A stretch of DNA of 64,000 nucleotides from Candidatus Poribacteria bacterium (lineage in GTDB: Bacteria; Poribacteria; WGA-4E; PCPOR2b): assembly GCA_965218095.1 (NCBI GenBank), contig OZ244587.1, forward strand, positions 3,936,001 to 4,000,000. The letters are read 5' to 3'. The position numbers were made by a program, and so were the translations under genes. Of the stretch, positions 1-47,105 are shown one piece after another (the first letter of the stretch is position 1; each line of letters opens with the position of its first letter). The notes beneath the pieces were generated by a model. It was not told the origin of the DNA and did no database searches. It saw only the letters and a program-made list of their open reading frames with translations.

Positions 1-13
1 TTTTCTTGAAGGA

Positions 14-373
14 TTGTTGGGCCAAGATAGAGCAACCGAAGTTCAATCTTTTTTCCAATCAATTGATTGGAGTACAATCTCCATGACGGATTTTTCTCTT
101 CATTCAGTCGGTATTATCCTGTTCAAGTTGAAGAAGTTTGCACTTTTTATCTCATTCATGGAGGATATCCTTGTTAATGATGTCGATATCCTCTCATTGG
201 ATCCAGAAGATCTTAAGACATTAAACCAGTTAGCTCAGAAATTCAACCTTGATTTTGATGACGCCTACCAATATGCTGTCGCCGAGGAATATGACCTACA
301 ACTCATCAGTTTTGATAAGGATTTTGATCAAACAGATAGAGAACGAAAGGAGCCCGCCGAGCTGCTAAAATGA
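14..373 (+). CDS. PIN-domain (VapC-like) ribonuclease, probably 5'-truncated by the window edge
   Basis: C-terminal PIN motifs LDFDDAYQYAVA and LISFDKDFD; stop overlaps the methylase ATG (ATGA). Confidence 0.8.
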   Translation: MLGQDRATEVQSFFQSIDWSTISMTDFSLHSVGIILFKLKKFALFISFMEDILVNDVDILSLDPEDLKTLNQLAQKFNLDFDDAYQYAVAEEYDLQLISFDKDFDQTDRERKEPAELLK

Positions 374-3117
374 AACGCTTTATTGAAGAAACCTTCCCCG
401 TCAAAGAAGTCAGCGAAGAATCCGCTCGTGAAAAAAACATACGACACGGAAACATTTCTACCCTCCATATCTGGTGGGCGCGGCGACCACTTGCCTCATC
501 ACGTGCGACCGCCTACGCCGCCCTGACCCCTACGCCGGAGAACACCGACGAGTGGAGCCGCAAACGGGATTTTATCATCAATCTCTCGAAGTGGGAAAAT
601 TCCCTTAATCCCCACCTCATTGAACGGGCGCGGCAGGACATCCTCGAAGCAAACGACGGTGTGCCCCCAAAGGTTCTCGATCCCTTTGGGGGCGGCGGGG
701 CGATTCCGCTGGAGGCGCTTCGGCTTGGATGTGAAACCTACTCCAACGACCTCAACCCTGTTGCTGTCCTGATGCAGAAGTGCACGCTCGAATACCCGCA
801 GAAGTACGGTATGAGGAAGACGGGTAATGAATTACCCATCTACAAACCTGAAAATGAAGGAATACTCTTTGGTGAGGCAACGAAAAATCCCTCCGGTGAA
901 GCACCGAGAGTCCGGAGCGACTTGCTCGAAGATGTCAAGAAATGGGGTGCGTGGACACTCGCGGAAGCGAAAGTAGAACTGGAGAGATTTTATCCCGAAG
1001 AGAAGGACGGTGCAATCCCGGTCGGCTATATTTGGGCGAGAACGATTCCGTGTCAGAATCCGTCCTGTGGTACGGAAATTCCGCTAATGCGTCGATTCTG
1101 GCTGGCAAACAAGGCGAAAAAGAAGGTTGCCCTTTATCCTGACGTTGAGAACGACGAGGTGAATTTTAAGATTGTCGGCGATGGCTACGAACCGATGCCG
1201 ATTGGTTTTGACCCGACTAGGGGCACCGTTTCACGCGCTGTGGCGGTGTGCCACGTCTGCAGTGGGCCGGTAGAAGCGAAGTTGACGCGACAGTTGTTTC
1301 AGGATGGGAGTGCGGGAGAGCGGATGGTTGCCGTTGTAACACACACACCGGGCACAACGGGAAAACGTTATCGCGTGGCGACGGATGCCGACCTTGCCCT
1401 CTTTTGGGAAGCCGAGGCGTACCTTGCGGAGAAGCGGGAGAAGTTGACGTTAGAATGGGGTATGGATGCGGTGCCGGATGAGCCTACACCAGAAGGAAAA
1501 GGAAGCGGGGCTGAAAGAGCATTTTCTGTTCAGAACTACGGAATGAACACATGGGGCGACCTCTTCAACGCAAGGCAGAAATTGGCGTTGATTACGTTTG
1601 TGGAGAAGGTGAAGGCGGCGTATCAAAAGATGGTGGCGGAAGGGGTTGATGGGGAGTATGCGAAGGCGGTGGTGAGTTATTTGGCACTATGTATAAGCCG
1701 TTGTTCAGATTTTGAGAGCACACTTGTTACGTGGTTGAACCATGTGGAAAATTCAGGCCATACGTTTACAAGACAAGCAATTCCAATGGTGTGGGATTTT
1801 TTTGAACTCAACTTATTCTCGCCTGTTTCTCAAGGAACTTTTTACAGCATGTCCCGACAAATCTTGCGGACAATAGAGATTTTGGGACAGACTAAATATC
1901 CATTCGCTGGATTAACCACCCAAGCCTCAGCAACCTCCCTCCCCTATCCTAGTAATTTCTTTAATGCGGTCTTCACCGATCCGCCATACTACGACAACGT
2001 GCCGTATTCGTATCTCTCCGATTTCTTCTACGTTTGGCTCAAGCGAATGTTGGCCGATGTCTATCCCGAACTCTTCTCCACACCGTTGACACCCAAGAGA
2101 AACGAGATTGTCGCCTATTCGCACGGCGTAGGCGGTTTTGAGGAGGGCAAACGGTTCTTTGAGGAGTCGCTCAAGCTGTCTTTCCAAGAAATCCACCGCG
2201 TATTGAAACCGAACAGTGTTGCCGTTATCGTCTACGCGCATAAATCCACAGAGGGATGGGAAACATTGATTAACTCCCTACTCGATTCTGGGCTGATTGT
2301 GACCGGCGCGTGGCCACTGGATACGGAGATGAAAGGGCGTCTTCGTGCTCGAGAATCCGCTGCCCTCGCGTCCTCTATCTACATCGTCGCCCGGAAGATG
2401 GAACGTCAACCCACCGGTTTCTACAACGAAGTCAAAGCGGAGATGACAACGCATCTCAACGCCAAACTTCACCGACTCTGGGAGGAAGGTCTGGGCGGGG
2501 CGGACTTCTTCATCGCCGCCATCGGCTCCGCCATTGAGATCTTTGGTAAATATGAGAAGGTTATGGATTTTGAAGGGGAGATCATCCGCGCTGATCGGCT
2601 GCTTGACGATGTGCGAGAGATTGCCACCGATTACGCGGTGCGGCAGATTCTGCACAATGGATTTGCCGGTGAAATTTCCGACCTCACTCGTTTCTATGTC
2701 CTCTGGCGGTGGGAGTACGGCGAAGCACGCGTCCATTTTGACGAAGCACGGAAGTTGGCGCAGTCCTGTGGTGTTGACCTCGCCCAGGAATGGGGCAGCA
2801 AGGGTTTCATCGTGAAAGAGAAGGCGTTTATCCGCCTCCTCGGACCACAGTCCCGGAAGATAGACGACCTCAAAGACGCAGGAGAGTTGATTGACGTGTT
2901 GCACCATGTCTTGCTCCTATGGGAAAAGAGCCAACGAGATGAAATGATTCGCGTCCTCGCACAAAGCGGCTACGGAGACAGCGAGGCGTTCTATCGCGTC
3001 GCGCAAGCCATCTCCGAAACGCTGCCCATCGAGAGCAGAGAGAAAAAGCTGTTAGATGGTTTCCTCGCCGGTCGTGAAAGGGTCAGAGACGAGATGAGAC
3101 AAGGACGATTCTTCTAG
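370..3117 (+). CDS. DUF1156-domain adenine-specific DNA methyltransferase
   Basis: N-terminal LHIWWARRPLA (DUF1156), motif I DPFGGGG, Cys pairs CQNPSC...CHVC, motif IV TDPPY. Confidence 0.9.
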   Translation: MKRFIEETFPVKEVSEESAREKNIRHGNISTLHIWWARRPLASSRATAYAALTPTPENTDEWSRKRDFIINLSKWENSLNPHLIERARQDILEANDGVPPKVLDPFGGGGAIPLEALRLGCETYSNDLNPVAVLMQKCTLEYPQKYGMRKTGNELPIYKPENEGILFGEATKNPSGEAPRVRSDLLEDVKKWGAWTLAEAKVELERFYPEEKDGAIPVGYIWARTIPCQNPSCGTEIPLMRRFWLANKAKKKVALYPDVENDEVNFKIVGDGYEPMPIGFDPTRGTVSRAVAVCHVCSGPVEAKLTRQLFQDGSAGERMVAVVTHTPGTTGKRYRVATDADLALFWEAEAYLAEKREKLTLEWGMDAVPDEPTPEGKGSGAERAFSVQNYGMNTWGDLFNARQKLALITFVEKVKAAYQKMVAEGVDGEYAKAVVSYLALCISRCSDFESTLVTWLNHVENSGHTFTRQAIPMVWDFFELNLFSPVSQGTFYSMSRQILRTIEILGQTKYPFAGLTTQASATSLPYPSNFFNAVFTDPPYYDNVPYSYLSDFFYVWLKRMLADVYPELFSTPLTPKRNEIVAYSHGVGGFEEGKRFFEESLKLSFQEIHRVLKPNSVAVIVYAHKSTEGWETLINSLLDSGLIVTGAWPLDTEMKGRLRARESAALASSIYIVARKMERQPTGFYNEVKAEMTTHLNAKLHRLWEEGLGGADFFIAAIGSAIEIFGKYEKVMDFEGEIIRADRLLDDVREIATDYAVRQILHNGFAGEISDLTRFYVLWRWEYGEARVHFDEARKLAQSCGVDLAQEWGSKGFIVKEKAFIRLLGPQSRKIDDLKDAGELIDVLHHVLLLWEKSQRDEMIRVLAQSGYGDSEAFYRVAQAISETLPIESREKKLLDGFLAGRERVRDEMRQGRFF

Positions 3118-3211
3118 GTTCGTAGTAGGTCTCGGACTCTCGGTCGTAGACCGGAGGCGATTTATCGCCCGTCCGTGTCAACAACGCGCAATCAATTGCG
3201 CTACTACAAAT
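3118..3211. repeat. GTAG-type REP doublet (REPIN-like)
   Basis: Ends gtagtag...ctactac; right arm acgcgcaatcaattgcgctactac matches the reverse complement of gtagtagcgcaattcattgcgcgt at 47051 with one mismatch. Confidence 0.65.
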
Positions 3212-3241
3212 CCCAAGCACTTTATCTAAGGAGAAAAGCGA

Positions 3242-3415
3242 ATGATTCCATTCCACACAATTGCTGTGCCCCACCGCGACATCTTAGAAGGCAGACTCAC
3301 GCTAGACGTATTCGCGGCAGACCTGTGGGAAGTGTTCAAAGGTCGAGCACCGGACGAATACAAGGATACCAAGCAGTTTTTCGAGAAAACTTATAGAAGG
3401 GGATGGACAAAATGA
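3242..3415 (+). pseudogene. 57-aa stub duplicating the N-terminus of the DUF499 ATPase (not in ORF track)
   Basis: Reads MIPFHTIAVPHRDILEGRLTLDVFAADLWEVFKGRAPDEYKDTKQFFEKTYRRGWTK*; same RBS aaggagaaaagcga at 3228 and 4034. Confidence 0.9.
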
Positions 3416-3723
3416 ATCCGGCAATTCTTACCAAACGCGAGATTAAACAGAGGCTTCTGAGCCACCGGAACACGCTGAAAGAATACGGTGTGAAACGGCT
3501 TGGACTTTTCGGCTCTTATGTCAAAAGCACCACCGTTCATAGAGGTAGTGATATAGACCTGCTTGTAGAATTTGAGGAACTGTCATTCGATCAGTACATG
3601 GGGCTGCGTATTTTTCTTGAGGATCTTTTTGAGAAAAAGATTGACCTCGTCATCGCCGATTCGGTCAGACCGCGCTTGAAGCCTCGTATCGAAAAGGAAG
3701 TGGAGTATGTCGCGGGACTATGA
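3403..3723 (+). CDS. Minimal nucleotidyltransferase (MNT) antitoxin; start may be 3412
   Basis: LFGSY...GSDIDLLVEF nucleotidyltransferase motif; paired with HEPN gene. Confidence 0.9.
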   Translation: MDKMNPAILTKREIKQRLLSHRNTLKEYGVKRLGLFGSYVKSTTVHRGSDIDLLVEFEELSFDQYMGLRIFLEDLFEKKIDLVIADSVRPRLKPRIEKEVEYVAGL

Positions 3724-4051
3724 CATCTACCTCGAAGATATATTAGAAGCAATAGATCGGATTCAAGAGTACATGCAGGGAGTCAACCGCGCAGCGTTTG
3801 AAACCGATCGGATGCGGTTTGACGCAGTCATCCGAAACCTTGAAGTTATCGGTGAAGCCGTCAAACAGGTGCCTGATTCCGTTCGAGAAAAGCATCCAAG
3901 TGTTGAGTGGCGGAAGATTGCTGGGTTAAGAGACATCCTCATTCACAAATATTTCAACATCAACATTGAGATTGTCTGGGATGTGGTGCAATCGAATATT
4001 CCGATTTTGAAGATGGAGATTCAACAGATCACCAAGGAGAAAAGCGAATGA
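3707..4051 (+). CDS. HEPN (DUF86, HepT-like) ribonuclease toxin
   Basis: R-x4-H-x-Y motif RDILIHKY; RNLEVIGEA; overlaps both neighbours. Confidence 0.9.
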   Translation: MSRDYDIYLEDILEAIDRIQEYMQGVNRAAFETDRMRFDAVIRNLEVIGEAVKQVPDSVREKHPSVEWRKIAGLRDILIHKYFNINIEIVWDVVQSNIPILKMEIQQITKEKSE

Positions 4052-6591
4052 TTCCATTTCACACAATTGCTGTGCCCCACCGCGACATCTTAGAAGGCAG
4101 ACTCACGCTAAACGTATTCGCGGCAGACCTATGGGAAGTGTTCAGAGGCGCAGCGCCAGATGAATACAAAGACCCCACACAATTCTTCCAGAAAACATAT
4201 CAGACCGATGGACTCAAAAACCTGCTTTCGATTGTTGAAGGGAGGCTTAATGGTCGGGGCGGCGATCCGGTGATTCAGATCCAGACCCCCTTCGGCGGCG
4301 GTAAAACCCACGCGCTGATTGCGATGTATCACAAAGCCAGTGACTGGGACGTGCAAAAAGTGGTGCTAGTCGGGACACCGATGGGCGCGTCCGACACGTT
4401 ATGGGGCATGTTGGAAAAACAGTTGACGGGCAAGGTCGCACGTTTTGATGGGTTGACTTCACCCGGTCGGGACGCGCTCTACCAATTGCTGTCAGAAAAC
4501 CAGCCCGTGCTCATCCTGATGGACGAGGTACTGGAATATATGACCAAAGCCGCTGGCGTCCGGGTAGCGGACAGCACACTTGCATCACAGACACTTGCCT
4601 TTATGCAGGAGTTGACCGAAGCCGCTGCCATTTTGGAGCAGGTCGCATTGGTCATCACCCTTCCATCGGGGACTATGGAACACTATGACCAAGGGGCAGA
4701 ACGGCTATTTAAGCAACTTGGACAGATCGCGGGACGGGTGGAGAAGATTTATACGCCAGTACAAGAGCATGAGATCGCTCAGGTCATCAGGCGACGGCTC
4801 TTCTCACAGATCGATATGAATAGCGCGAGTGAAGCGATTCGGGATTTTATGGATTACGCCGACAGAGAATCCATTCTGCCGCCCGGAACGGAGCCCTCAG
4901 AATACCGAAAACGGTTTGAGGCCGCTTATCCGTTTCAACCCGAAGCGATTGATGTCCTTTATCAGCGGTGGGGCAGTTTCCCAAGTTTTCAACGGACGCG
5001 GGGTGTGTTGCGGCTCCTGTCATTTGTGATCTATTCCCTTAAAGAGGATGCAATTCCCTATATCAGTCTGGCAGATTTTGATCTGAGCGTTCAGGAAATT
5101 CGACAGGAGTTGTTAAAGCACATCGGAGGGGAATACGACAGCGTCATCGCCGCAGACATCACGGGTGAAGACGCCGGTGCGAAAAAGGTTGATGTCGGTC
5201 TGGGAGATGCTTACAAAGGATTGAAGTTGGGCAGCCGAGCTGCGACGGCCGTTTTTCTGTACTCATTTTCAGGTGGTACAGAGAAGGGCACGAATCTTGA
5301 AGAAATTAAGCGAAGCGCGACGACAACGGGGAATCCGTCGAGTATCCTCACGGAAGCGGTTGAGGGTTTGCGGGAAAAACTGTTTTACCTACGGCACGAT
5401 GGTGGAAGAGCTTATTTCACCAACCAGCCCAACCTCAACCGAATTCTGCTGATCCGAATGGAGAATATCAACGAGCGAGTAATTGACGAGTTTGAGGAAA
5501 CAGAACTGAAAAGGAACCTCTCTGGGGGACGGCTCAAGACTTTCGTCTGGCCCAAAGATAGATCGGACATTCCAGACAACACCGATCTGAAGTTGGTAAT
5601 CCTCAAGGAGCGCGACGACCCCCTGATGAAAGATACGCTGGAAACGAAGGGAAATACGCCTAGGGTGAACCGAAACACGCTTTTCTTTCTCGCACCGCTG
5701 GAACGCGAAGGGGCCGGGTTTTATAGTCAACTGCGAAAGATCATCGCCTACCGAGCCATTAGAGGCGACAAAACGCTGAATCTCTCTGTTGAACAACAGA
5801 AGGAGGTTCGGACCGAACTGAAAAAGGCGGAAGATGGGTTGGATGATGCGTTGTGTCGATATTACCGAACCGTGTTCGTTCTGGCAAGCGATGGTCTCAA
5901 AGAAAACGATTTGGGGCTTCCAACCTACGGTGTGCCGAAGATACTTGACGAAGCCGTATATGATAAACTGAAATCAGATGGAGTGGTTCTTGAACGTATT
6001 CATCCATTTGTGATTAAGGAGCGGTATCTTAAAACCAACGAATCTGTTTCCACTGAACAGCTCTATCAATCCAGTGCAAAGACACCGGGGGAATCGCGAG
6101 TCACCGGTCGCAGCGCATGGGAATCGGGAATTCGTGAAGGGGTGGAACAGGGGTTGTTCGGACTTGGGGAACTAGAAGACGGAAAACCGGTCTGCCGATA
6201 TTTCAAGGAGCGTCCATCCTCAATTGCCCTTTCTGCGAATGAAGTGATTATCCGAGAGGACATCTGTATCGCCCAGGAGGAAGCGGAAAAAGAAAAGGAA
6301 AAATCACCGGAGCCTCTCTATTCCCCCGGTGGCAGTACCAAAACGAAAATCGTAGAACCACCAGTCCCGGAGCCACCGTCGCCGCCAGATGGACGCGACA
6401 GCGTTCGTCTGAAGTTCACAATCCCGAAAGGAAAGGTGTCAGGACTCATGGGCGTGATGAACCTGCTGCAATCGAATTTCGATAGCCTTCAAATTGAGTT
6501 ACTGGCGACGGAGGGGCAGATGTCAGATCAGGATTACGAAGATAAAATCAAAGAGGCGTTTGTGCAATTGGGAATCGATCCGGAGGAATAA
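4048..6591 (+). CDS. DUF499-family AAA+ ATPase
   Basis: Walker A TPFGGGKTH, Walker B LILMDE, family motifs YPFQP and FQRTRGVLRLL. Confidence 0.9.
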   Translation: MIPFHTIAVPHRDILEGRLTLNVFAADLWEVFRGAAPDEYKDPTQFFQKTYQTDGLKNLLSIVEGRLNGRGGDPVIQIQTPFGGGKTHALIAMYHKASDWDVQKVVLVGTPMGASDTLWGMLEKQLTGKVARFDGLTSPGRDALYQLLSENQPVLILMDEVLEYMTKAAGVRVADSTLASQTLAFMQELTEAAAILEQVALVITLPSGTMEHYDQGAERLFKQLGQIAGRVEKIYTPVQEHEIAQVIRRRLFSQIDMNSASEAIRDFMDYADRESILPPGTEPSEYRKRFEAAYPFQPEAIDVLYQRWGSFPSFQRTRGVLRLLSFVIYSLKEDAIPYISLADFDLSVQEIRQELLKHIGGEYDSVIAADITGEDAGAKKVDVGLGDAYKGLKLGSRAATAVFLYSFSGGTEKGTNLEEIKRSATTTGNPSSILTEAVEGLREKLFYLRHDGGRAYFTNQPNLNRILLIRMENINERVIDEFEETELKRNLSGGRLKTFVWPKDRSDIPDNTDLKLVILKERDDPLMKDTLETKGNTPRVNRNTLFFLAPLEREGAGFYSQLRKIIAYRAIRGDKTLNLSVEQQKEVRTELKKAEDGLDDALCRYYRTVFVLASDGLKENDLGLPTYGVPKILDEAVYDKLKSDGVVLERIHPFVIKERYLKTNESVSTEQLYQSSAKTPGESRVTGRSAWESGIREGVEQGLFGLGELEDGKPVCRYFKERPSSIALSANEVIIREDICIAQEEAEKEKEKSPEPLYSPGGSTKTKIVEPPVPEPPSPPDGRDSVRLKFTIPKGKVSGLMGVMNLLQSNFDSLQIELLATEGQMSDQDYEDKIKEAFVQLGIDPEE

Positions 6592-6669: not shown

Positions 6670-7065
6670 ATGCCAACCGCTTTTGAAGCAATTGACAGGT
6701 GGATTGACGAGGCACACGCCAAACTGGAAAATGGTGGGCTTCAGACAAGGGATCTGGATCGACTTCATCAGATTATCAACACAAATCAGTTGCATACGCG
6801 ACAACGGCTGCTCTATCTCCATACGGCGACACCGGGCATCCGTTCTCAAGTCATCGGCATGGCGCTGCATGAACCGACGCCCGGCTCAGTGACGGAGATT
6901 ACGACGGAGGGTCACGAATGGTCTTATAATACCGTACACGATGCCATCTTGGACGGGTGGCAGGTCATTCATTTCCCGGATCAGCAGACTGACTTTGACG
7001 ACCGGGAAATTGACATCTTGGGCTACGAATTTATCCTACAAAAATTGGAGGTTTACAATGGCTGA
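6670..7065 (+). CDS. Hypothetical protein coupled to a PhyH dioxygenase
   Basis: RBS aaggag, 131 aa, overlaps next start. Confidence 0.7.
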   Translation: MPTAFEAIDRWIDEAHAKLENGGLQTRDLDRLHQIINTNQLHTRQRLLYLHTATPGIRSQVIGMALHEPTPGSVTEITTEGHEWSYNTVHDAILDGWQVIHFPDQQTDFDDREIDILGYEFILQKLEVYNG

Positions 7066-7813
7066 CAAGCCGTACCTCTTGACCGACGACGAAACCATCT
7101 CTTTTATCATTCGCGGTTACCACATCGTTGAGGCGGATTTCCCCGAAGGCTTCAACGAGTCGATTTACGAAGAACTTGAAGGCTTAGATATTTTGCAGGA
7201 CAATCCGGGCGATGCAATTCTTGACCGCGTCCCCAAGCTCTATCAGGTCTACGACCATCCCAAAATGCGTGGGGCGTTGGTGAGTCTGCTCGGCGAAGAT
7301 GTCCAGATGAACAGCCATCGGCATTGCCACGTCAACCCGCCCGGCACACGGAGCCAGTCATGGCATCAAGACGGAACAAACAAGCGGCGCCACCAGATTC
7401 AAACCGTCCTGGCAATGTATTATCCGCAGGATGTGACTGCGGAATTAGGACCCACTGTAATCATGCCCGGGACGCACTTCCGCAACGCTCCGACCGACCG
7501 CATGGCGACCTACGCCAACTTCCGCGAGCAGGTTGTGCTTGCGGTCAAGGCGGGGACGGTGGCGATTACGCACTACGACATCTGGCACGCCGCCACCGCG
7601 AATTGTGGCGATCAGACACGGTACATGCTGAAGTTCCTCTTCAGTCGTGGGATCGAGCCAAAGGCGCCGAGTTGGAACTACCATCCGGAGAAAGCTGCCG
7701 CCTCGATACGTCGCTTTACCTTCGAGCGGGCATGCGCCTGTTCCCAATCCGATCATTACAAGGAACGCGGGTTGCGTATGGAGATGTGGAATCACTTAAT
7801 CGGCAAGACGTAA
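7058..7813 (+). CDS. Phytanoyl-CoA dioxygenase (PhyH) family Fe(II)/2OG dioxygenase
   Basis: WHQD HxD motif, GPTVIMPGTH, distal IWHA; start at MADKPY after RBS ggagg. Confidence 0.85.
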   Translation: MADKPYLLTDDETISFIIRGYHIVEADFPEGFNESIYEELEGLDILQDNPGDAILDRVPKLYQVYDHPKMRGALVSLLGEDVQMNSHRHCHVNPPGTRSQSWHQDGTNKRRHQIQTVLAMYYPQDVTAELGPTVIMPGTHFRNAPTDRMATYANFREQVVLAVKAGTVAITHYDIWHAATANCGDQTRYMLKFLFSRGIEPKAPSWNYHPEKAAASIRRFTFERACACSQSDHYKERGLRMEMWNHLIGKT

Positions 7814-7993
7814 TGATAGCATTTCGGATTACGCTGTTAACCGTGGAGGACTTTACGGGAAGGGTTTATAGTATCTTGCCGATATCAGGCTCTGTTGACG
7901 AACTCGGGGAAATGTGCCCCCAATCTCCGATTGGGGATGCAAGTTGAGCGAAGCGAAATCCTGATCTATCGGAGCAACGGAAAGGATGATTAT

Positions 7994-9571
7994 ATGGGTA
8001 CGAAGATGAATTTTACTTCAAAAGTTCCGCAACGGACCTATGCGGCCACACTGGATGAGCAACTGGAACAACTGAAAACGGATGCGCTGATGCTACGATT
8101 CGCTGAGTCGCGCAAAAGGCTGTCATCCGATCCCTGCCGTCCTGTCTACCATTACGTCAATCCCGAGGGGAATCTGAATGACCCAAACGGACTGTGCTAC
8201 TGGCAGGGGCAGTGGCACCTGTTTTACCAGGCGTATCCGCCGGAAGACCCGCGCCAGCACTGGGGCCACGCCGTCAGCAATGACCTGGTGCACTGGGAGG
8301 ACCTTCCGCTGGCCATTTATCCCGGCATCGAGAGGTGTTGTTATAGCGGTAGCACGCTCGTCGAGGCAGACCGCGTCATCGCCATGTACCACGGCACGCT
8401 CGCAGGCAACATGGTCGCCGTATCCGGCGACCCGCTGCTCCTCAACTGGGAGAAAATTTCTGGCAACCCGGTTATCCCCATGATGCAGCCCGACGAAATG
8501 GGATGGCCCTACCGCGTGTACGACCCCTGCATCTGGAAGGGAGAGAACGGGTACTATGCGCTGTCCGGCAGCTACTGGGAGGGGGAAATCTTTGACGACT
8601 GCCGAATGGTACAGCATCTATTTTTCTCACAAAATCTGGAACGCTGGGCCTACCTCGGGTCGTTTGTCGAGGGCGATATTTTCACCGCGCCGGGTGAGGA
8701 CGGCGCGGTCCCGTACTTCTGGCCGATCGGCGATAAACACATCCTCTTGTTCGCCAGTCACCAACGCGGCTCACAGTATCTGCTCGGCGATTACGACAAG
8801 GTGCATCACAGATTCAAACCCTTCGCGCACGGCCGCTTCAATTTTGGCCCCATCGAGCCCGGCGGCGTCCACGCCCCGTCGGCTACGCCCGATGGCAAAG
8901 GAGGCGTGTACGTCATCTACAATATCAACAGCGGCAAACCAACTCAGGGCTGGAACCACATCATGTCCCTCGTGCGTCTGCTGACTTTGCGCGAGGATAA
9001 CACGCTGGGCATCGAACCCGCCCCGGCGGTGGAATCGCTCCGATTTGACTACAAACACGTCGGGGAAACGTCCCTGCCTGCAAACCGGGAGCTTGTGCTC
9101 AAGGGCATTGAAGGGAACGCGATGGAACTCGCCGCCGAAATCGAGCCCCAAGACGCGCGCGAGATCTGCATCAATGTTCTGCGTTCGCCAGACAGCGAGG
9201 AGTATACCGCCATCAAATTCTACCGGCAGGGCCATATGCGGGTGAGTAAAGCTGGATGGGAAGGGAGGCACAAGCGAGACGCGCTGGTAATCGACTCGTC
9301 TCGCTCATCGCTGCTGCCAGACGTGCTGGCGCGTCCGCCGGAGGTGGCGCCGTTCGAGCTCGATGATGGCGAATCCCTCAAGCTACGGCTCTTCATAGAC
9401 AAGAGTGTGGTCGAAGTCTTCGCCAACGGTAGGCAATGCGTTGCCCTGCGGGTATACCCCGCACGGGTGGACAGCGTGGGCGTATCCATCCGCGCCCAGG
9501 GTAGCGATGCGGCCTTGCGCTCTCTGGAAGCGTGGCAGATGAAGCCCATCTGGCCGCATGAGAAAGATTGA
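7994..9571 (+). CDS. Glycoside hydrolase family 32-like protein
   Basis: NDPNG, WHLFYQ, WGHAVS, SGS motifs, C-terminal SVVEVFANG. Confidence 0.85.
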   Translation: MGTKMNFTSKVPQRTYAATLDEQLEQLKTDALMLRFAESRKRLSSDPCRPVYHYVNPEGNLNDPNGLCYWQGQWHLFYQAYPPEDPRQHWGHAVSNDLVHWEDLPLAIYPGIERCCYSGSTLVEADRVIAMYHGTLAGNMVAVSGDPLLLNWEKISGNPVIPMMQPDEMGWPYRVYDPCIWKGENGYYALSGSYWEGEIFDDCRMVQHLFFSQNLERWAYLGSFVEGDIFTAPGEDGAVPYFWPIGDKHILLFASHQRGSQYLLGDYDKVHHRFKPFAHGRFNFGPIEPGGVHAPSATPDGKGGVYVIYNINSGKPTQGWNHIMSLVRLLTLREDNTLGIEPAPAVESLRFDYKHVGETSLPANRELVLKGIEGNAMELAAEIEPQDAREICINVLRSPDSEEYTAIKFYRQGHMRVSKAGWEGRHKRDALVIDSSRSSLLPDVLARPPEVAPFELDDGESLKLRLFIDKSVVEVFANGRQCVALRVYPARVDSVGVSIRAQGSDAALRSLEAWQMKPIWPHEKD

Positions 9572-9621
9572 ACATAAAATACAATCACACCTTACGTTTG
9601 AATCAAGTAAGGAGAACCAAT

Positions 9622-10827
9622 ATGGCAAATCTAGCAATTAACGGTGGAACACCTGTTCGGACAAAACCTTACCCCTCATGGCCCACATTTGATAATCGAG
9701 ACCTCAAAACCTTTGAGGCGGTCTATCGGAGTGGAAAGTGGGGCACCGGTGGTTCAAGGGTTCCCAAGTTTGAAAAGCGTTTCGCTGAATTTCAAGATGC
9801 AAAGCACGGCGTTTGTGTCAATAGCGGAACAGCAGCTTTGTATGTCGCACTCAAAGCCGCAGGCGTTGGGCTCGGCGATGAAGTCATCACAACGCCATAC
9901 ACCTTTCAAGCAACGGTCGTTGCTATCCTGATGGCAAATGGAGCGCCGGTGTTCGTCGATACGTTGCCCGATGGATTTAACATCGACCCATCGAAGATCG
10001 AACCCGCAATCACACCGAAGACAAAAGCCATCCTGCCGGTTCACATTGCTGGCTATCCTGCCGATATGGACGCGATTATGGAAATCTCCAATCGACACAA
10101 CCTCATTGTGGTTGAGGACTGTGCGCAGGCACACGGCGCGGAATGGCGTGGCAGAGGAGTTGGTGGTTGGGGACATTTCGGTTGTTTTAGCTTTCAGTCA
10201 TCCAAAAACCTGTGTGCCGGAGAAGGCGGTATCGTTTTGACCAACGATCGAAAGCTATATGAACGTGCCTGGGCGATTCACAACTGCGGGCGCACGCCTC
10301 CTGGGTCGGAATTTGATACAGAGCCACTTGGCGGGAATTTCCGGATGACCGAGTGGCAAGGTGGGTTACTGCTCTCACGCCTGGATAGACTTGATGAGGA
10401 GGTCAATCTGCGCAATACGAATATGCGACTTTTGGACCAGGGGTTAGGGGAGATTCCCGGCATCAAGGTGACGCCGCTCGATCCACGCGCAACTCGTGGC
10501 GGTTGTCACGGCTACAAAGCGATTTTCGATTCAGAGGAGTTTGAAGGCATCTCCCGCGAAGATTTTCTCCAAGCGATGCGGGCAGAAGGTATTCCGATGG
10601 GGCATTGGTATACAACGCCGATGTATCGACAGACGCTCATGGGTTCAGATCTCCTGAGTGCAAAGCTCGACTATTCAAATGTCTCCTGTTCAGAGGCTGA
10701 AACACTGTGTGAAAATGGTCTGGCACTGAGCCAGAGCATTTTGATGGGAAGCCAAGAAGACATGGCTGACATCATCACAACGGCAACTAAGGTACGTCGC
10801 TACGTGGGGGAGTTGGCAGAATCTTGA
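9622..10827 (+). CDS. DegT/DnrJ/EryC1/StrS PLP-dependent aminotransferase
   Basis: EDCAQAHGA, FSFQSSKNL, GEGG. Confidence 0.9.
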   Translation: MANLAINGGTPVRTKPYPSWPTFDNRDLKTFEAVYRSGKWGTGGSRVPKFEKRFAEFQDAKHGVCVNSGTAALYVALKAAGVGLGDEVITTPYTFQATVVAILMANGAPVFVDTLPDGFNIDPSKIEPAITPKTKAILPVHIAGYPADMDAIMEISNRHNLIVVEDCAQAHGAEWRGRGVGGWGHFGCFSFQSSKNLCAGEGGIVLTNDRKLYERAWAIHNCGRTPPGSEFDTEPLGGNFRMTEWQGGLLLSRLDRLDEEVNLRNTNMRLLDQGLGEIPGIKVTPLDPRATRGGCHGYKAIFDSEEFEGISREDFLQAMRAEGIPMGHWYTTPMYRQTLMGSDLLSAKLDYSNVSCSEAETLCENGLALSQSILMGSQEDMADIITTATKVRRYVGELAES

Positions 10828-10883
10828 TTGATTATGTTTTTCACGCTTTGTATTAACCCAAGTTGCCACCTATAAGCAGGTAG

Positions 10884-11051
10884 AAACTCGATTTTGAAAG
10901 CAACTCACTCGAAGATGAGTTTGCTCAACCCCGATAAGATCGGGATTCAAAGCAACTTGAGGCGAAAGACAGCGCCGAGAACGACCTCGCTACGCTGAAA
11001 TCGCAACTCGGAAAAGGAATAGAATCAGATACTGAGACAAAAGATGCGTAA
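10884..11051 (+). pseudogene. C-terminal relic of a PspA/IM30-like protein interrupted by a 27-bp insertion
   Basis: SLEDEFAQ[insert with TAA]LEAKDSAENDLATLKSQLGK. Confidence 0.55.
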
Positions 11052-11101
11052 ACGTAAAGGTGAAATATCTGACGTTTTACGCCTTTTCAAAGGAGGGTCT
11101 C

Positions 11102-12184
11102 ATGGCTCAACCCAAGGGCGAGGCATTTCGTGTCATTCACGAGAGCAAACCTAAACACACCTATCGCAGTGCAGTTGTCGGATGTGGCAGAATGGGCAGC
11201 ACAATTGATGATGAACATATCGGAATGCCACACTACCCCTGGCCGTGGGCACACGCCCCGGCAATGATTGAAGCGCGGGGCGTAGATCTACTTGCTGCGG
11301 CCGATGTGGATCAAGCAAAACTAAATGACTTCAAGCGGCGTTGGGGCGTCGAAGCCCTTTACACCGACTATCGAGAGATGGTCAAAAAGGAGCAGCCAGA
11401 CATCGTCTGCCTAACGACCCGTCCCGAACCCCGTGCAGAGGTCACTATCGGCTTGGCAGAAGCCGGCGTCAAGGCAATCTATGCCACGAAGCCGATGTGT
11501 CGCACCCTCGCCGAAGCGGACGCAATGATCGACGCCTGCCACAAGCACGGGGTCATCCTCGCTATTGCGTGTCATCTCAACTGGTACAACTGGTACACAA
11601 ACGCTCGTCAAGCAATCGCCGACGGAACCATCGGCAAATTGAGATCGATGTTCTGTCACAGCCCATCCAGCCTCTCGAATCTGCATAGCCATACGCTCGC
11701 GCTCTTTCGCCTGTTTGCCGGTGCCCCGGCAAAGTGGGTCTTTGGCGTGATGGACAGCGAAGAAGGCGCAGCCGGAGATCGCGACCTCTCGGGCTCGGGG
11801 TATATCGTCTACGAGAACGGTGTCCGCGCTGTCATGAATACCCAATCTGAAACTTCAGGGCACACATGGACACTCGAATTTATCGGTGAGAAGGGGCGTA
11901 TCGTTTCACGCAACGCCCACGCCCAGTTCGAGCTATGGAGTACCCATCCAGAGACGGGTGGGCCTATCCAGTGTCAGTTTCCCAACCCTTGGTATCCGCG
12001 GAGTTCAATGGTGGACGCAGTCGAAGGCGTTTGCAAATCTCTTGAGGCCGGAGAAGAGCGAATCTGTCCGGGTGAATTTGGCAGGGAGGCTCTGGAAATC
12101 GCCATTGCTCTACGCGAATCCCATCGCCGCGGCAATGTGCGGGTCGATCTGCCACTGGAGGATCGAAGCCTGCGGATGGGGTAA
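11102..12184 (+). CDS. Gfo/Idh/MocA oxidoreductase
   Basis: VVGCGRMG Rossmann motif; ATKPM variant of EKP. Confidence 0.85.
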   Translation: MAQPKGEAFRVIHESKPKHTYRSAVVGCGRMGSTIDDEHIGMPHYPWPWAHAPAMIEARGVDLLAAADVDQAKLNDFKRRWGVEALYTDYREMVKKEQPDIVCLTTRPEPRAEVTIGLAEAGVKAIYATKPMCRTLAEADAMIDACHKHGVILAIACHLNWYNWYTNARQAIADGTIGKLRSMFCHSPSSLSNLHSHTLALFRLFAGAPAKWVFGVMDSEEGAAGDRDLSGSGYIVYENGVRAVMNTQSETSGHTWTLEFIGEKGRIVSRNAHAQFELWSTHPETGGPIQCQFPNPWYPRSSMVDAVEGVCKSLEAGEERICPGEFGREALEIAIALRESHRRGNVRVDLPLEDRSLRMG

Positions 12185-46829: not shown

Positions 46830-47050
46830 GTCATCCTCCCAATCTGAAATAAACTCATCTAATAATGTTACATTATAGCCGAAAAGCGCGTTGAAATCAA
46901 TACCTGAAACGTGATGTGTGATGTGTGATGAGTCATTCGTATTTCATGAGTGGATTGAGATTGCCCGCAGAGAGATCTAAAGAACTGCGCCTAATCTATC
47001 ATCGTGCAGGGTTCTGAGTAATTTTCAGGATTAAACTATACATTCCGTTT

Positions 47051-47105
47051 GTAGTAGCGCAATTCATTGCGCGTTTGGGACAGTGATGGAATCGCCTCAC
47101 TACAA
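47051..47105. repeat. GTAG-type REP doublet
   Basis: gtagtagcgcaattcattgcgcg...cactac; same family as 3118-3211. Confidence 0.6.

Follow-up and report, generated by a model that had tools for sequence, protein, structure and literature searches.

Results and discussion

Two hmaC 5′ ends around one toxin–antitoxin pair

We analyzed a 64,000-nucleotide (nt) stretch of DNA from a Candidatus Poribacteria bacterium (GenBank contig OZ244587.1, positions 3,936,001–4,000,000; hereafter, the window), in which a toxin–antitoxin (TA) pair consisting of a minimal nucleotidyltransferase (MNT) gene and a HEPN ribonuclease gene lies between hmaB and hmaC of a Hma defence locus. As read from the sequence, the pair is probably embedded in the Hma operon, and a short open reading frame (ORF) in front of it, the stub, would be a scar left by recombination between hmaC alleles, translated in a chain of overlapping ORFs with the cassette. 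We assign this reading, taken as a whole, a probability of about 0.55.

A repeat search showed that positions 3228–3394 and 4034–4200 are copies of each other (167 nt, 148/167 identical, 89%) at a spacing of 806 nt. When the hmaC start region was compared with its own upstream DNA by blastn, the match had an E-value of 1.25e-57, far beyond chance. Each copy opened with AAGGAG (3228–3233 and 4034–4039), 8 nt ahead of an ATG (3242 and 4048). Copy 1 contains, on the plus strand, the hmaC Shine–Dalgarno (SD) sequence and codons 1–51 of an hmaC allele, and copy 2, also on the plus strand, contains the 3′ end of HEPN, carrying the hmaC SD, and codons 1–51 of the full-length hmaC. An earlier note on this DNA had described a repeated ribosome-binding site followed by about 51 codons at 3228 and again at 4034, bracketing MNT-HEPN, and both searches bore it out. 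The note had also called the first ~100 nt nearly identical, which agrees with the measured extent of 111 nt with 3 mismatches; the remaining 16 of the 19 mismatches fell within the last 56 nt. The best breakpoint was located at position 3339, with a maximum chi-square of 24.7 that was reached by 7 of 10,000 permutations (p = 0.0007).

The stub (3242–3415, plus strand) comprises 57 codons, specifying 51 HmaC N-terminal residues (PADLOC HmaC, 5.5e-15 over residues 1–51) and the tail RRGWTK. The full-length hmaC (4048–6591, plus strand) encodes a DUF499 ATPase of the AAA+/STAND type with 847 residues (PADLOC HmaC, 5.3e-125; Pfam DUF499, 9.6e-32), in which the Walker A/P-loop motif GGGKT occupies residues 83–87; the stub is devoid of Walker A. 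Beyond position 3394 the two copies displayed a weak, indel-shifted similarity (GATGGA--CAAAA at 3402–3412 versus GATGGACTCAAAA at 4207–4219; shuffle p ~0.009), suggesting that hmaC-derived sequence probably extends right to the MNT start codon. The foreign cargo may thus start at the MNT ATG itself, and the SD-like AAGGGG of MNT would then lie within altered hmaC codons 52–54.

When the stub was compared with hmaC, the silent-site and replacement-site differences were 0.09 and 0.014 in codons 1–32, and 0.91 (saturated) and 0.13 in codons 33–51. In the latter segment there were 10.0 silent versus 6.0 replacement differences, where the neutral expectation is about 1 to 4. Since the silent sites were saturated and the replacements few, the last third of the stub would represent an allele that has diverged under constraint at the protein level. 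All six stub-specific residues were found in natural homologs (n = 116, i.e. 119 minus 3 that had no N-terminus): D22 in 96, K33 in 33, R35 in 39, T43 in 1, K44 in 2, and E48 in 35. In the segment comparison, 34 of the 116 homologs were nearer to the stub, 77 were nearer to the full-length copy, and 5 were ties; the alleles nearest to the stub segment were P0076, P0013, and P0058 (17/19 each). The segment of the full-length copy matched its own clade (FRG[AT]APDEYKDPTQFFQKTY in P0003–P0030), and its silent-site difference to the closest DNA relative, locus L001, was 0.185, whereas the stub was an outlier at 0.76.

These comparisons suggest that the stub is the 5′ end of a different hmaC allele rather than a degenerated duplicate of the resident one, and that it is most probably a scar of recombination. 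The view of the earlier note that two functional alleles, rather than decay, are involved was upheld by the silent and replacement values and by the natural occurrence of the stub residues; the two allele peptides that it quoted matched the translations, and the stub changes went towards residues of other hmaC alleles.

The HmaC homologs were found at 93–62% identity, and the hmaC alleles appeared mosaic. In comparison with P0003–P0013, the first 450 residues, taken in blocks of 50, were mostly 90–100% identical, and identity fell to 60–80% in the C-terminal half, in blocks that differed between relatives; P0007 was ~95% identical to the HmaC of the window over the first 450 residues and 60–84% identical over most of the next 350. 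This pattern points to frequent recombination among alleles and to a C-terminus that is hypervariable. The 5′ 300 nt of hmaC were the best-conserved DNA of the gene, with 89–91% identity to L001 compared with 81% overall.

The native hmaC position and the HEPN tail

The left edge of the arrangement was examined against L001, whose HmaC is 80% identical and which, like several relatives of the HEPN protein, is labelled Candidatus Poribacteria. The PhyH gene downstream of hmaC was 88% identical between the window and L001, and the two loci are therefore regarded as orthologous. In the window, hmaB and the stub are separated by a native hmaB–hmaC spacer of 110 nt (3118–3227, plus strand), identified by alignment and blastn to the L001 spacer (83% over 71 nt, L001 7918–7987), with REP-like palindromes at 3156–3169 and 3186–3201. 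The alignment showed that the spacer runs into the SD as it does in L001, which has no MNT-HEPN. Judged by this alignment, the stub sits at the native start position of hmaC.

At the right edge, the C-terminus of HEPN (...KEKSE*) is encoded by AAGGAGAAAAGCGAATGA; the KEKSE codons carry the hmaC SD, and the HEPN TGA overlaps the hmaC ATG at 4048, so that the last codons of HEPN indeed form the second ribosome-binding site, as had been noted. A clade of 114-residue HEPN proteins (to ~56% identity) ended in ...QQI[LI]KEKSE, KERSE, KERNE or similar among the 120 matches listed, and the 111-residue relatives among the matches listed ended in ...IL+SE or similar. The onset of these additional residues coincides with that of the repeat (4034), and we interpret them as the product of an ancient read-through into the SD of hmaC.

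Six pairs of HEPN and HmaC relatives reported longest contigs of equal size, from which equality alone a common contig is deduced: P0170/P0007 (5,302,950 nt), P0187/P0056 (19,922 nt), P0247/P0065 (7,742 nt), P0237/P0077 (190,689 nt), P0239/P0064 (6,244,018 nt), and P0231/P0101 (6,111,736 nt). Two more HEPN matches were likewise paired with short HmaC N-terminal fragments (P0203/P0125 and P0277/P0165). If the pairs share contigs, the position of HEPN directly upstream of hmaC is probably old and widespread, and the stub a later event. The proposal of the earlier note that the TA pair arrived by recombination at the hmaC 5′ end therefore held in part: recombination at this site is supported, whereas a recent arrival of the TA pair is not, because the SD-bearing tail is common to the whole 114-residue HEPN clade.

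The TA pair and its translation

The MNT gene (3412–3723, plus strand) encodes a MntA-like minimal nucleotidyltransferase, the putative antitoxin (Pfam NTP_transf_2, 6.5e-12; PADLOC PDC-S09, 2.6e-31), and the HEPN gene (3707–4051, plus strand) a HepT-like ribonuclease, the putative toxin (Pfam HepT-like, 2.1e-32). The HEPN protein matched no PADLOC model; the PDC-S09 model matched by MNT is a candidate model. Against the NCBIfam model pair NF047751/NF047752, MNT scored 39.1 bits with MntA and HEPN 53.7 bits with the HepT equivalog, both below the cut-off of 60. The HEPN translation carries an intact RDILIH (Rx4H) motif, and what we take to be the MNT motif, GS...DID, was read by eye in the other translation. 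MNT is the upstream gene, and the two genes overlap by 17 nt. By domains and overlap, the pair is thus classified as a MntA/HepT-like TA pair.

Three relatives of MNT begin exactly at the residue encoded by the ATG at 3412, and none of the 150 matches listed aligns earlier, suggesting that 3412 is likely to be the start of MNT. The SD-like sequence AAGGGG is found at 3397–3402, 9 nt upstream of this ATG. The stub ORF is intact and has a strong SD, and its TGA (3413–3415) could be read in the sequence as overlapping the MNT ATG (3412), in agreement with the earlier description. Together, the stop/start overlaps of stub and MNT (ATGA), MNT and HEPN (17 nt), and HEPN and hmaC (ATGA) link four ORFs in an unbroken chain.

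Translational coupling through overlapping stop and start codons (ATGA) is known in operons and from upstream leader ORFs. The chain of four linked ORFs that the coupling suggested in the earlier note would need is present, and coupling from the stub through MNT and HEPN to hmaC is plausible from this layout; the stub may feed ribosomes onto MNT-HEPN. Unlike coupling leader ORFs that encode a dedicated leader peptide, the stub is a piece of the structural gene that lies downstream. The idea that translation of the stub unmasks the MNT start was dropped, as no structure beyond that of shuffled controls was found (z = +0.74).

A scan of positions 2800–4400 gave no promoter-like sites and one terminator-like site, on the minus strand, with none on the plus strand; the cassette is inferred to be transcribed with the operon. 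The AlphaFold2 model of HmaC, built with 65 sequences, was poor (pLDDT 64.3, pTM 0.38, with residues 1–26 below pLDDT 50), and in it residues 1–51 precede the P-loop core and show no confident fold of their own.

Recurrence of the stub

A 57-residue protein of one other genome, P0123, was 98% identical to the stub, with a single change (R35Q) and the same tail, RRGWTK. P0123, the HEPN protein P0170 (99% identical to that of the window), and the HmaC protein P0007 all report a contig of 5,302,950 nt, and it is from this equal size that they are assigned to the same genome. The D22/N22 difference between stub and hmaC is shared by the P0123 genome, which implies that the stub structure is older than the split of the two genomes.

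A profile hidden Markov model (HMM) of the HmaC N-terminus, run in six frames over the 80 related loci, recovered the resident N-terminus in 75, of which 62 include 1 kb or more of upstream sequence, and detected no second hmaC start; two further matches were at chance level (E = 0.37 and 0.96). When the hmaC start of each locus (−60 to +400) was compared with its own upstream DNA by blastn, a real match was obtained only in the window, L001 giving a 30-nt REP match. A search of short proteins with the stub returned 47 matches, of which one, P0123, had the same junction. Most of the 26 that were inspected resembled frameshifted or truncated hmaC, the tail of P0126, for example, fitting the +1 frame of hmaC codons. 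Positions 3118–4300 matched nothing in collections of plasmids and phages when these were searched with blastn in distant mode.

The stub was thus seen in two related genomes only, and a stub-based plug-in mechanism is not general. The general slot of stub plus exchangeable cargo that the earlier note had envisaged is not supported, as there was no second hmaC start in the 75 loci and 1 of the 47 short proteins shared the junction. Five short proteins (P0125, P0144, P0164, P0165, and P0166) combined the HmaC N-terminus with unrelated tails, some of them encoded on long contigs or on many, P0164 being present on 28; these could be hmaC genes that have been interrupted, or stubs that have other junctions.

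Origin of the arrangement

The simplest account of the arrangement would be that hmaC 5′ ends from two different loci came to lie one behind the other. One parent would have been cassette-less, with the REP spacer, SD, and hmaC in succession, as in L001, and the other cassette-bearing, in the order MNT, HEPN, SD, and hmaC. A single illegitimate join would have connected hmaC codon ~52–57 to the MNT start codon, accompanied by a homologous crossover elsewhere in the locus, and the first 111 nt would either have been homogenised later by gene conversion or represent the crossover tract. In such a tandem, the left edge of the repeat would lie exactly at the SD because upstream of that point one parent has the spacer and the other the body of HEPN. 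The tandem-allele model would also explain the last third of the stub as a diverged, protein-conserving allele, and L001 as the cassette-less form.

In the resulting operon, ribosomes recruited by the native hmaC SD, a strong site, would translate the stub and stop on the MNT start (ATGA), and termination–reinitiation down the stub, MNT, HEPN, and hmaC would couple TA output to defence-operon expression. If the two repeats recombined by a RecA-type route, the 806-nt unit would be lost and an intact hmaC would remain. Excision of this kind is plausible given the repeats, and L001 resembles the empty site that it would leave, but no excised form was observed; deletion of the TA pair would be expected to be counter-selected.

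In homology-facilitated illegitimate recombination and merodiploid formation, one homologous and one illegitimate join are combined to insert foreign DNA, and partial duplication of the anchor gene is possible, according to the available parts of PMC3240628 and PMC3784515. The resemblance to the present locus is one of analogy, and the microhomology at the junction is weak here.

Several points weigh against the reading of the stub as a coupled recombination scar. (i) One DNA relative, L001, is too few to establish in what order the events took place; the same data would be accommodated by an 806-nt circle that entered in Campbell fashion, or by an old duplication after which hmaC was replaced from codon 33 on. 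(ii) Gene conversion has been assumed for the first 111 nt, the extended similarity at 3402–3412 is weak (p ~0.009), and the divergence estimates for codons 33–51 come from just 19 codons. (iii) The shared contigs of the HEPN/HmaC pairs are read from equal sizes only. (iv) MNT has an SD-like sequence of its own, so that coupling is in principle dispensable, and folding of positions 3340–3450 against shuffled sequences revealed no stable RNA structure at the stub/MNT junction (z = +0.74). (v) The promoter scan covered sites of the sigma-70 consensus type only.

Among the other explanations, the one that survives best, although we consider it unlikely, is that the 806-nt unit of one repeat and MNT-HEPN acts as a plug-in cassette, which loops out and enters other hma loci by a single crossover at the hmaC 5′ end and leaves the stub as the donor allele, so that the slot could be loaded reversibly. 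It would account for the direct repeats that bracket the cargo, for the foreign allele in the last third of the stub beside a full-length copy and spacer that match L001, and for L001 itself, which has exactly the predicted empty or excised form. The high conservation of the hmaC 5′ end, the best-conserved DNA of the gene, and the diverse cargo at the same junction (24 of 62 loci, see below) are also in its favour. However, neither the HMM search of 75 related loci nor blastn revealed a second hmaC start, one in 47 short HmaC-N-terminal proteins shares the junction, and the unit is without a recombinase. In addition, the near-identity of the first 111 nt would need a further step, and loss of a TA pair is normally penalised.

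Slightly less likely still, and tentative, is the proposal that the first ~50 codons of hmaC and the 3′ end of hmaB serve as recombination anchors by which slot cargo is swapped between divergent Hma loci, and that the stub was retained as a leader ORF whose 3′ end was reshaped to hold the MNT ribosome-binding site and the overlapping stop, setting the TA dose per round of operon translation. If so, this locus would provide the first visible trace of the route by which defence genes become embedded.

It is also possible, but rather improbable in our view, that the stub is itself a selected product, either a 57-residue micro-protein (a decoy, a regulator, or a TA partner) or a leader ORF with a reshaped 3′ end. 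The ORF is intact with a strong SD, it is kept in a second genome with one replacement (R35Q) and the same tail, and the replacement-site difference in codons 33–51 is low; positions 3395–3411 resemble hmaC codons 52–57 altered to give AAGGGG and a frameshift that places the stop on the MNT ATG. Two closely related genomes nevertheless give no power to detect selection, and a recent origin from a functional allele explains the low replacement rate equally well. The AlphaFold2 model, a poor one, shows no confident fold for residues 1–51, and the HMM and blastn searches of related loci found no other stubs.

Direct repeats around an insert are a classic sign of local duplication, and the resident hmaC 5′ end might have been duplicated, in tandem or in the manner of a target site, when the cassette was inserted, and then have decayed neutrally. 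We regard this as very improbable, since the mismatches are unevenly spread (p = 0.0007), the silent differences exceed the replacement differences (10.0 versus 6.0) where neutrality predicts about 1 to 4, the stub residues are those of other natural alleles, and neither a transposase nor a terminal inverted repeat is present. Least credible of all is an assembly artefact in which the assembler placed the hmaC starts of two strain variants one after the other, as can happen with the strain mixtures behind a metagenome-assembled genome, from which the window probably derives: a cassette of 622–639 nt with intact, overlapping ORFs lies between the copies, and the recurrence of the same stub and junction tail with a 99% identical HEPN in a different genome speaks against it.

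Two further candidates were tried and rejected. For a transposon or insertion sequence (IS) with target-site duplication, the unit holds only MNT and HEPN, there are no inverted repeats at its ends, and the repeat, instead of being short and exact, measures 167 nt at 89% identity and has diverged in the manner of alleles. For an integron-like cassette there is no recombinase, attC-like sites having been covered by the general repeat search only.

Cargo in the hmaB–hmaC slot and known systems

In 62 of the 80 loci, hmaB lies upstream of hmaC, and the gap between them exceeded 250 nt in 24 of the 62, although 8 of these 24 gaps are overestimated as the HmaB match ended early. Cargo recognised by Pfam was present in 11 of the 24 large-gap loci: an IS200-like Y1 transposase in L001, AAA_15/AAA_21 ATPases in L002 and L019, GmrSD and Schlafen in L003, Schlafen-HATPase_c_4 in L043 and L069, PIN in L011, DUF433 in L057, DUF2283 with a HEPN fragment in L007, MNT and HEPN in L059, and HepT with MNT (found by phmmer) in L075. 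MNT-HEPN pairs were also found just upstream of hmaB in L007, L029, and L037.

The suggestion of an effector slot in a defence operon is therefore supported by recurrent cargo at the hmaB–hmaC junction (24/62 loci), a phenomenon that is already published (10.1101/2024.01.29.577857). In the available part of that work, Payne et al. (2024) reported that, of 1,485 Hma systems, 62.7% contain embedded genes, with a shared orientation in 96.7% of cases, and proposed co-regulation (10.1101/2024.01.29.577857). The 80 loci compared here follow this pattern. The main text does not address the route of cargo entry, the words 'recombination' and 'duplication' occurring 0 times, and its supplements may list cases (10.1101/2024.01.29.577857). 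According to the available part of PMC12839542, HEPN, HEPN-MNT, PIN, and Schlafen ribonucleases are backup effectors in or beside the locus of DUF499 systems, HEPN-DUF499 fusions occur, and the DUF499 C-terminus is hypervariable; that part contains no discussion of how cargo is inserted.

As embedded cargo, the TA pair thus represents an ordinary case of a published phenomenon. Its allele-derived stub is unusual, and as a probable scar it is informative about the way in which embedding can come about. As with the Hma-embedded genes in the part of 10.1101/2024.01.29.577857 available to us, the cargo sits between two hma genes, is oriented as they are, and includes a MNT that matches PDC-S09, but here it is bracketed by hmaC 5′ ends of different alleles, which would be a joining footprint. 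The locus shares the DUF499 ATPase and the DUF1156 methylase with the BREX-related type-1 systems of PMC12839542, as far as these are described in the part seen, and the hypervariable C-terminus of the latter matches the mosaic hmaC. In contrast to those systems, HEPN is here a separate, unfused HepT-like gene accompanied by MNT and ATGA-linked to hmaC; no stub is described in that part, and no helicase was seen in the part of the window that was scanned.

Type VII TA systems of the MntA-HepT kind consist of a small MNT gene followed by an overlapping gene for a HepT-like HEPN protein with Rx4H. Gene order, overlap, and sizes (~100 and 114 residues) are alike in the window, but the present pair scores below the NCBIfam cut-offs, has no promoter region of its own, and appears to be wired into a defence operon.

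The embedding of defence and TA genes in Hma, BREX, DISARM, and type I restriction–modification operons is established. If the stub is a recombination scar, the junction would show that at least one embedding was built by recombination between flanking core-gene alleles, without a transposase, and that recombination left the cargo fully wired into the translation of the operon. The case would then offer a concrete example for the mechanism of embedding and for the co-regulation of embedded cargo; with two related genomes only, it is a clue and not a rule.

Layout of the locus

All genes in the first 6.6 kb of the window lie on the plus strand. The hmaB gene (370–3117, plus strand) encodes a DUF1156 N6-adenine DNA methyltransferase (PADLOC HmaB, 2.5e-138; Pfam DUF1156, 5.5e-21) and lies upstream of hmaC on the same strand, as in Hma systems; MNT-HEPN (3412–4051) lies between the two in the same orientation, as do Hma-embedded cassettes. 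HmaC scored 165.8 bits against the NCBIfam equivalog 'DUF499_antiphage', below its cut-off of 1200. On these domain matches the locus is identified as a Hma system in the naming of PADLOC, which is the 'BREX-related type 1' in the naming of PMC12839542.

HmaA, a SNF2-type helicase, was not seen in the window as far as position 12184: before 6941 only hmaB and hmaC reach at least 250 residues, and the ORFs scanned from 6941 to 12184 were not helicases. In L004, L006, L034, L058, and L007, HmaA is encoded directly upstream of hmaB, a position that here lies beyond the start of the window.

The window opens with a PIN-domain (VapC-like) gene (2–373, plus strand; Pfam PIN, 1e-11), the 5′ end of which is cut by the window. 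Its G+C content was 38–41%, compared with 52–56% in the hma genes; its TGA overlaps the hmaB ATG (ATGA, 370–373), and AAAGGAG lies within its 3′ end. By appearance, the PIN gene is a second embedded ribonuclease cargo, probably situated between an unseen hmaA and hmaB.

In L001, HmaA was absent from the 4 kb upstream of hmaB, where four paralogous ORFs of ~253–273 residues were found (1–3985), and this locus may be a helicase-less remnant. Of the palindromes in the hmaB–hmaC spacer of the window (GGCGAT..ATCGCC, and GCGCAAT..ATTGCGC followed by CTACTAC), one recurred at window positions 47048–47075 (28 nt, 96% identity) and, in several copies, in L001 (6677–7868 and 10984–11015); the palindromes look like members of a dispersed REP/REPIN family of these genomes. 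The IS200-like Y1 transposase gene in the L001 slot (region 6975–7972, gene 7185–7802; Pfam Y1_Tnp, 3.4e-05) is possibly a REP-associated RAYT gene. On both sides of it lie direct repeats of 164 nt (95% identity, spacing 834 nt), which consist of the REP-bearing spacer. At L001 6598–6974, the last 61 nt of hmaB are present three times (89–90% identical), in 150-nt tandem units after the hmaB stop, and these duplicated hmaB 3′ fragments form a left-flank counterpart of the hmaC 5′ stub of the window.

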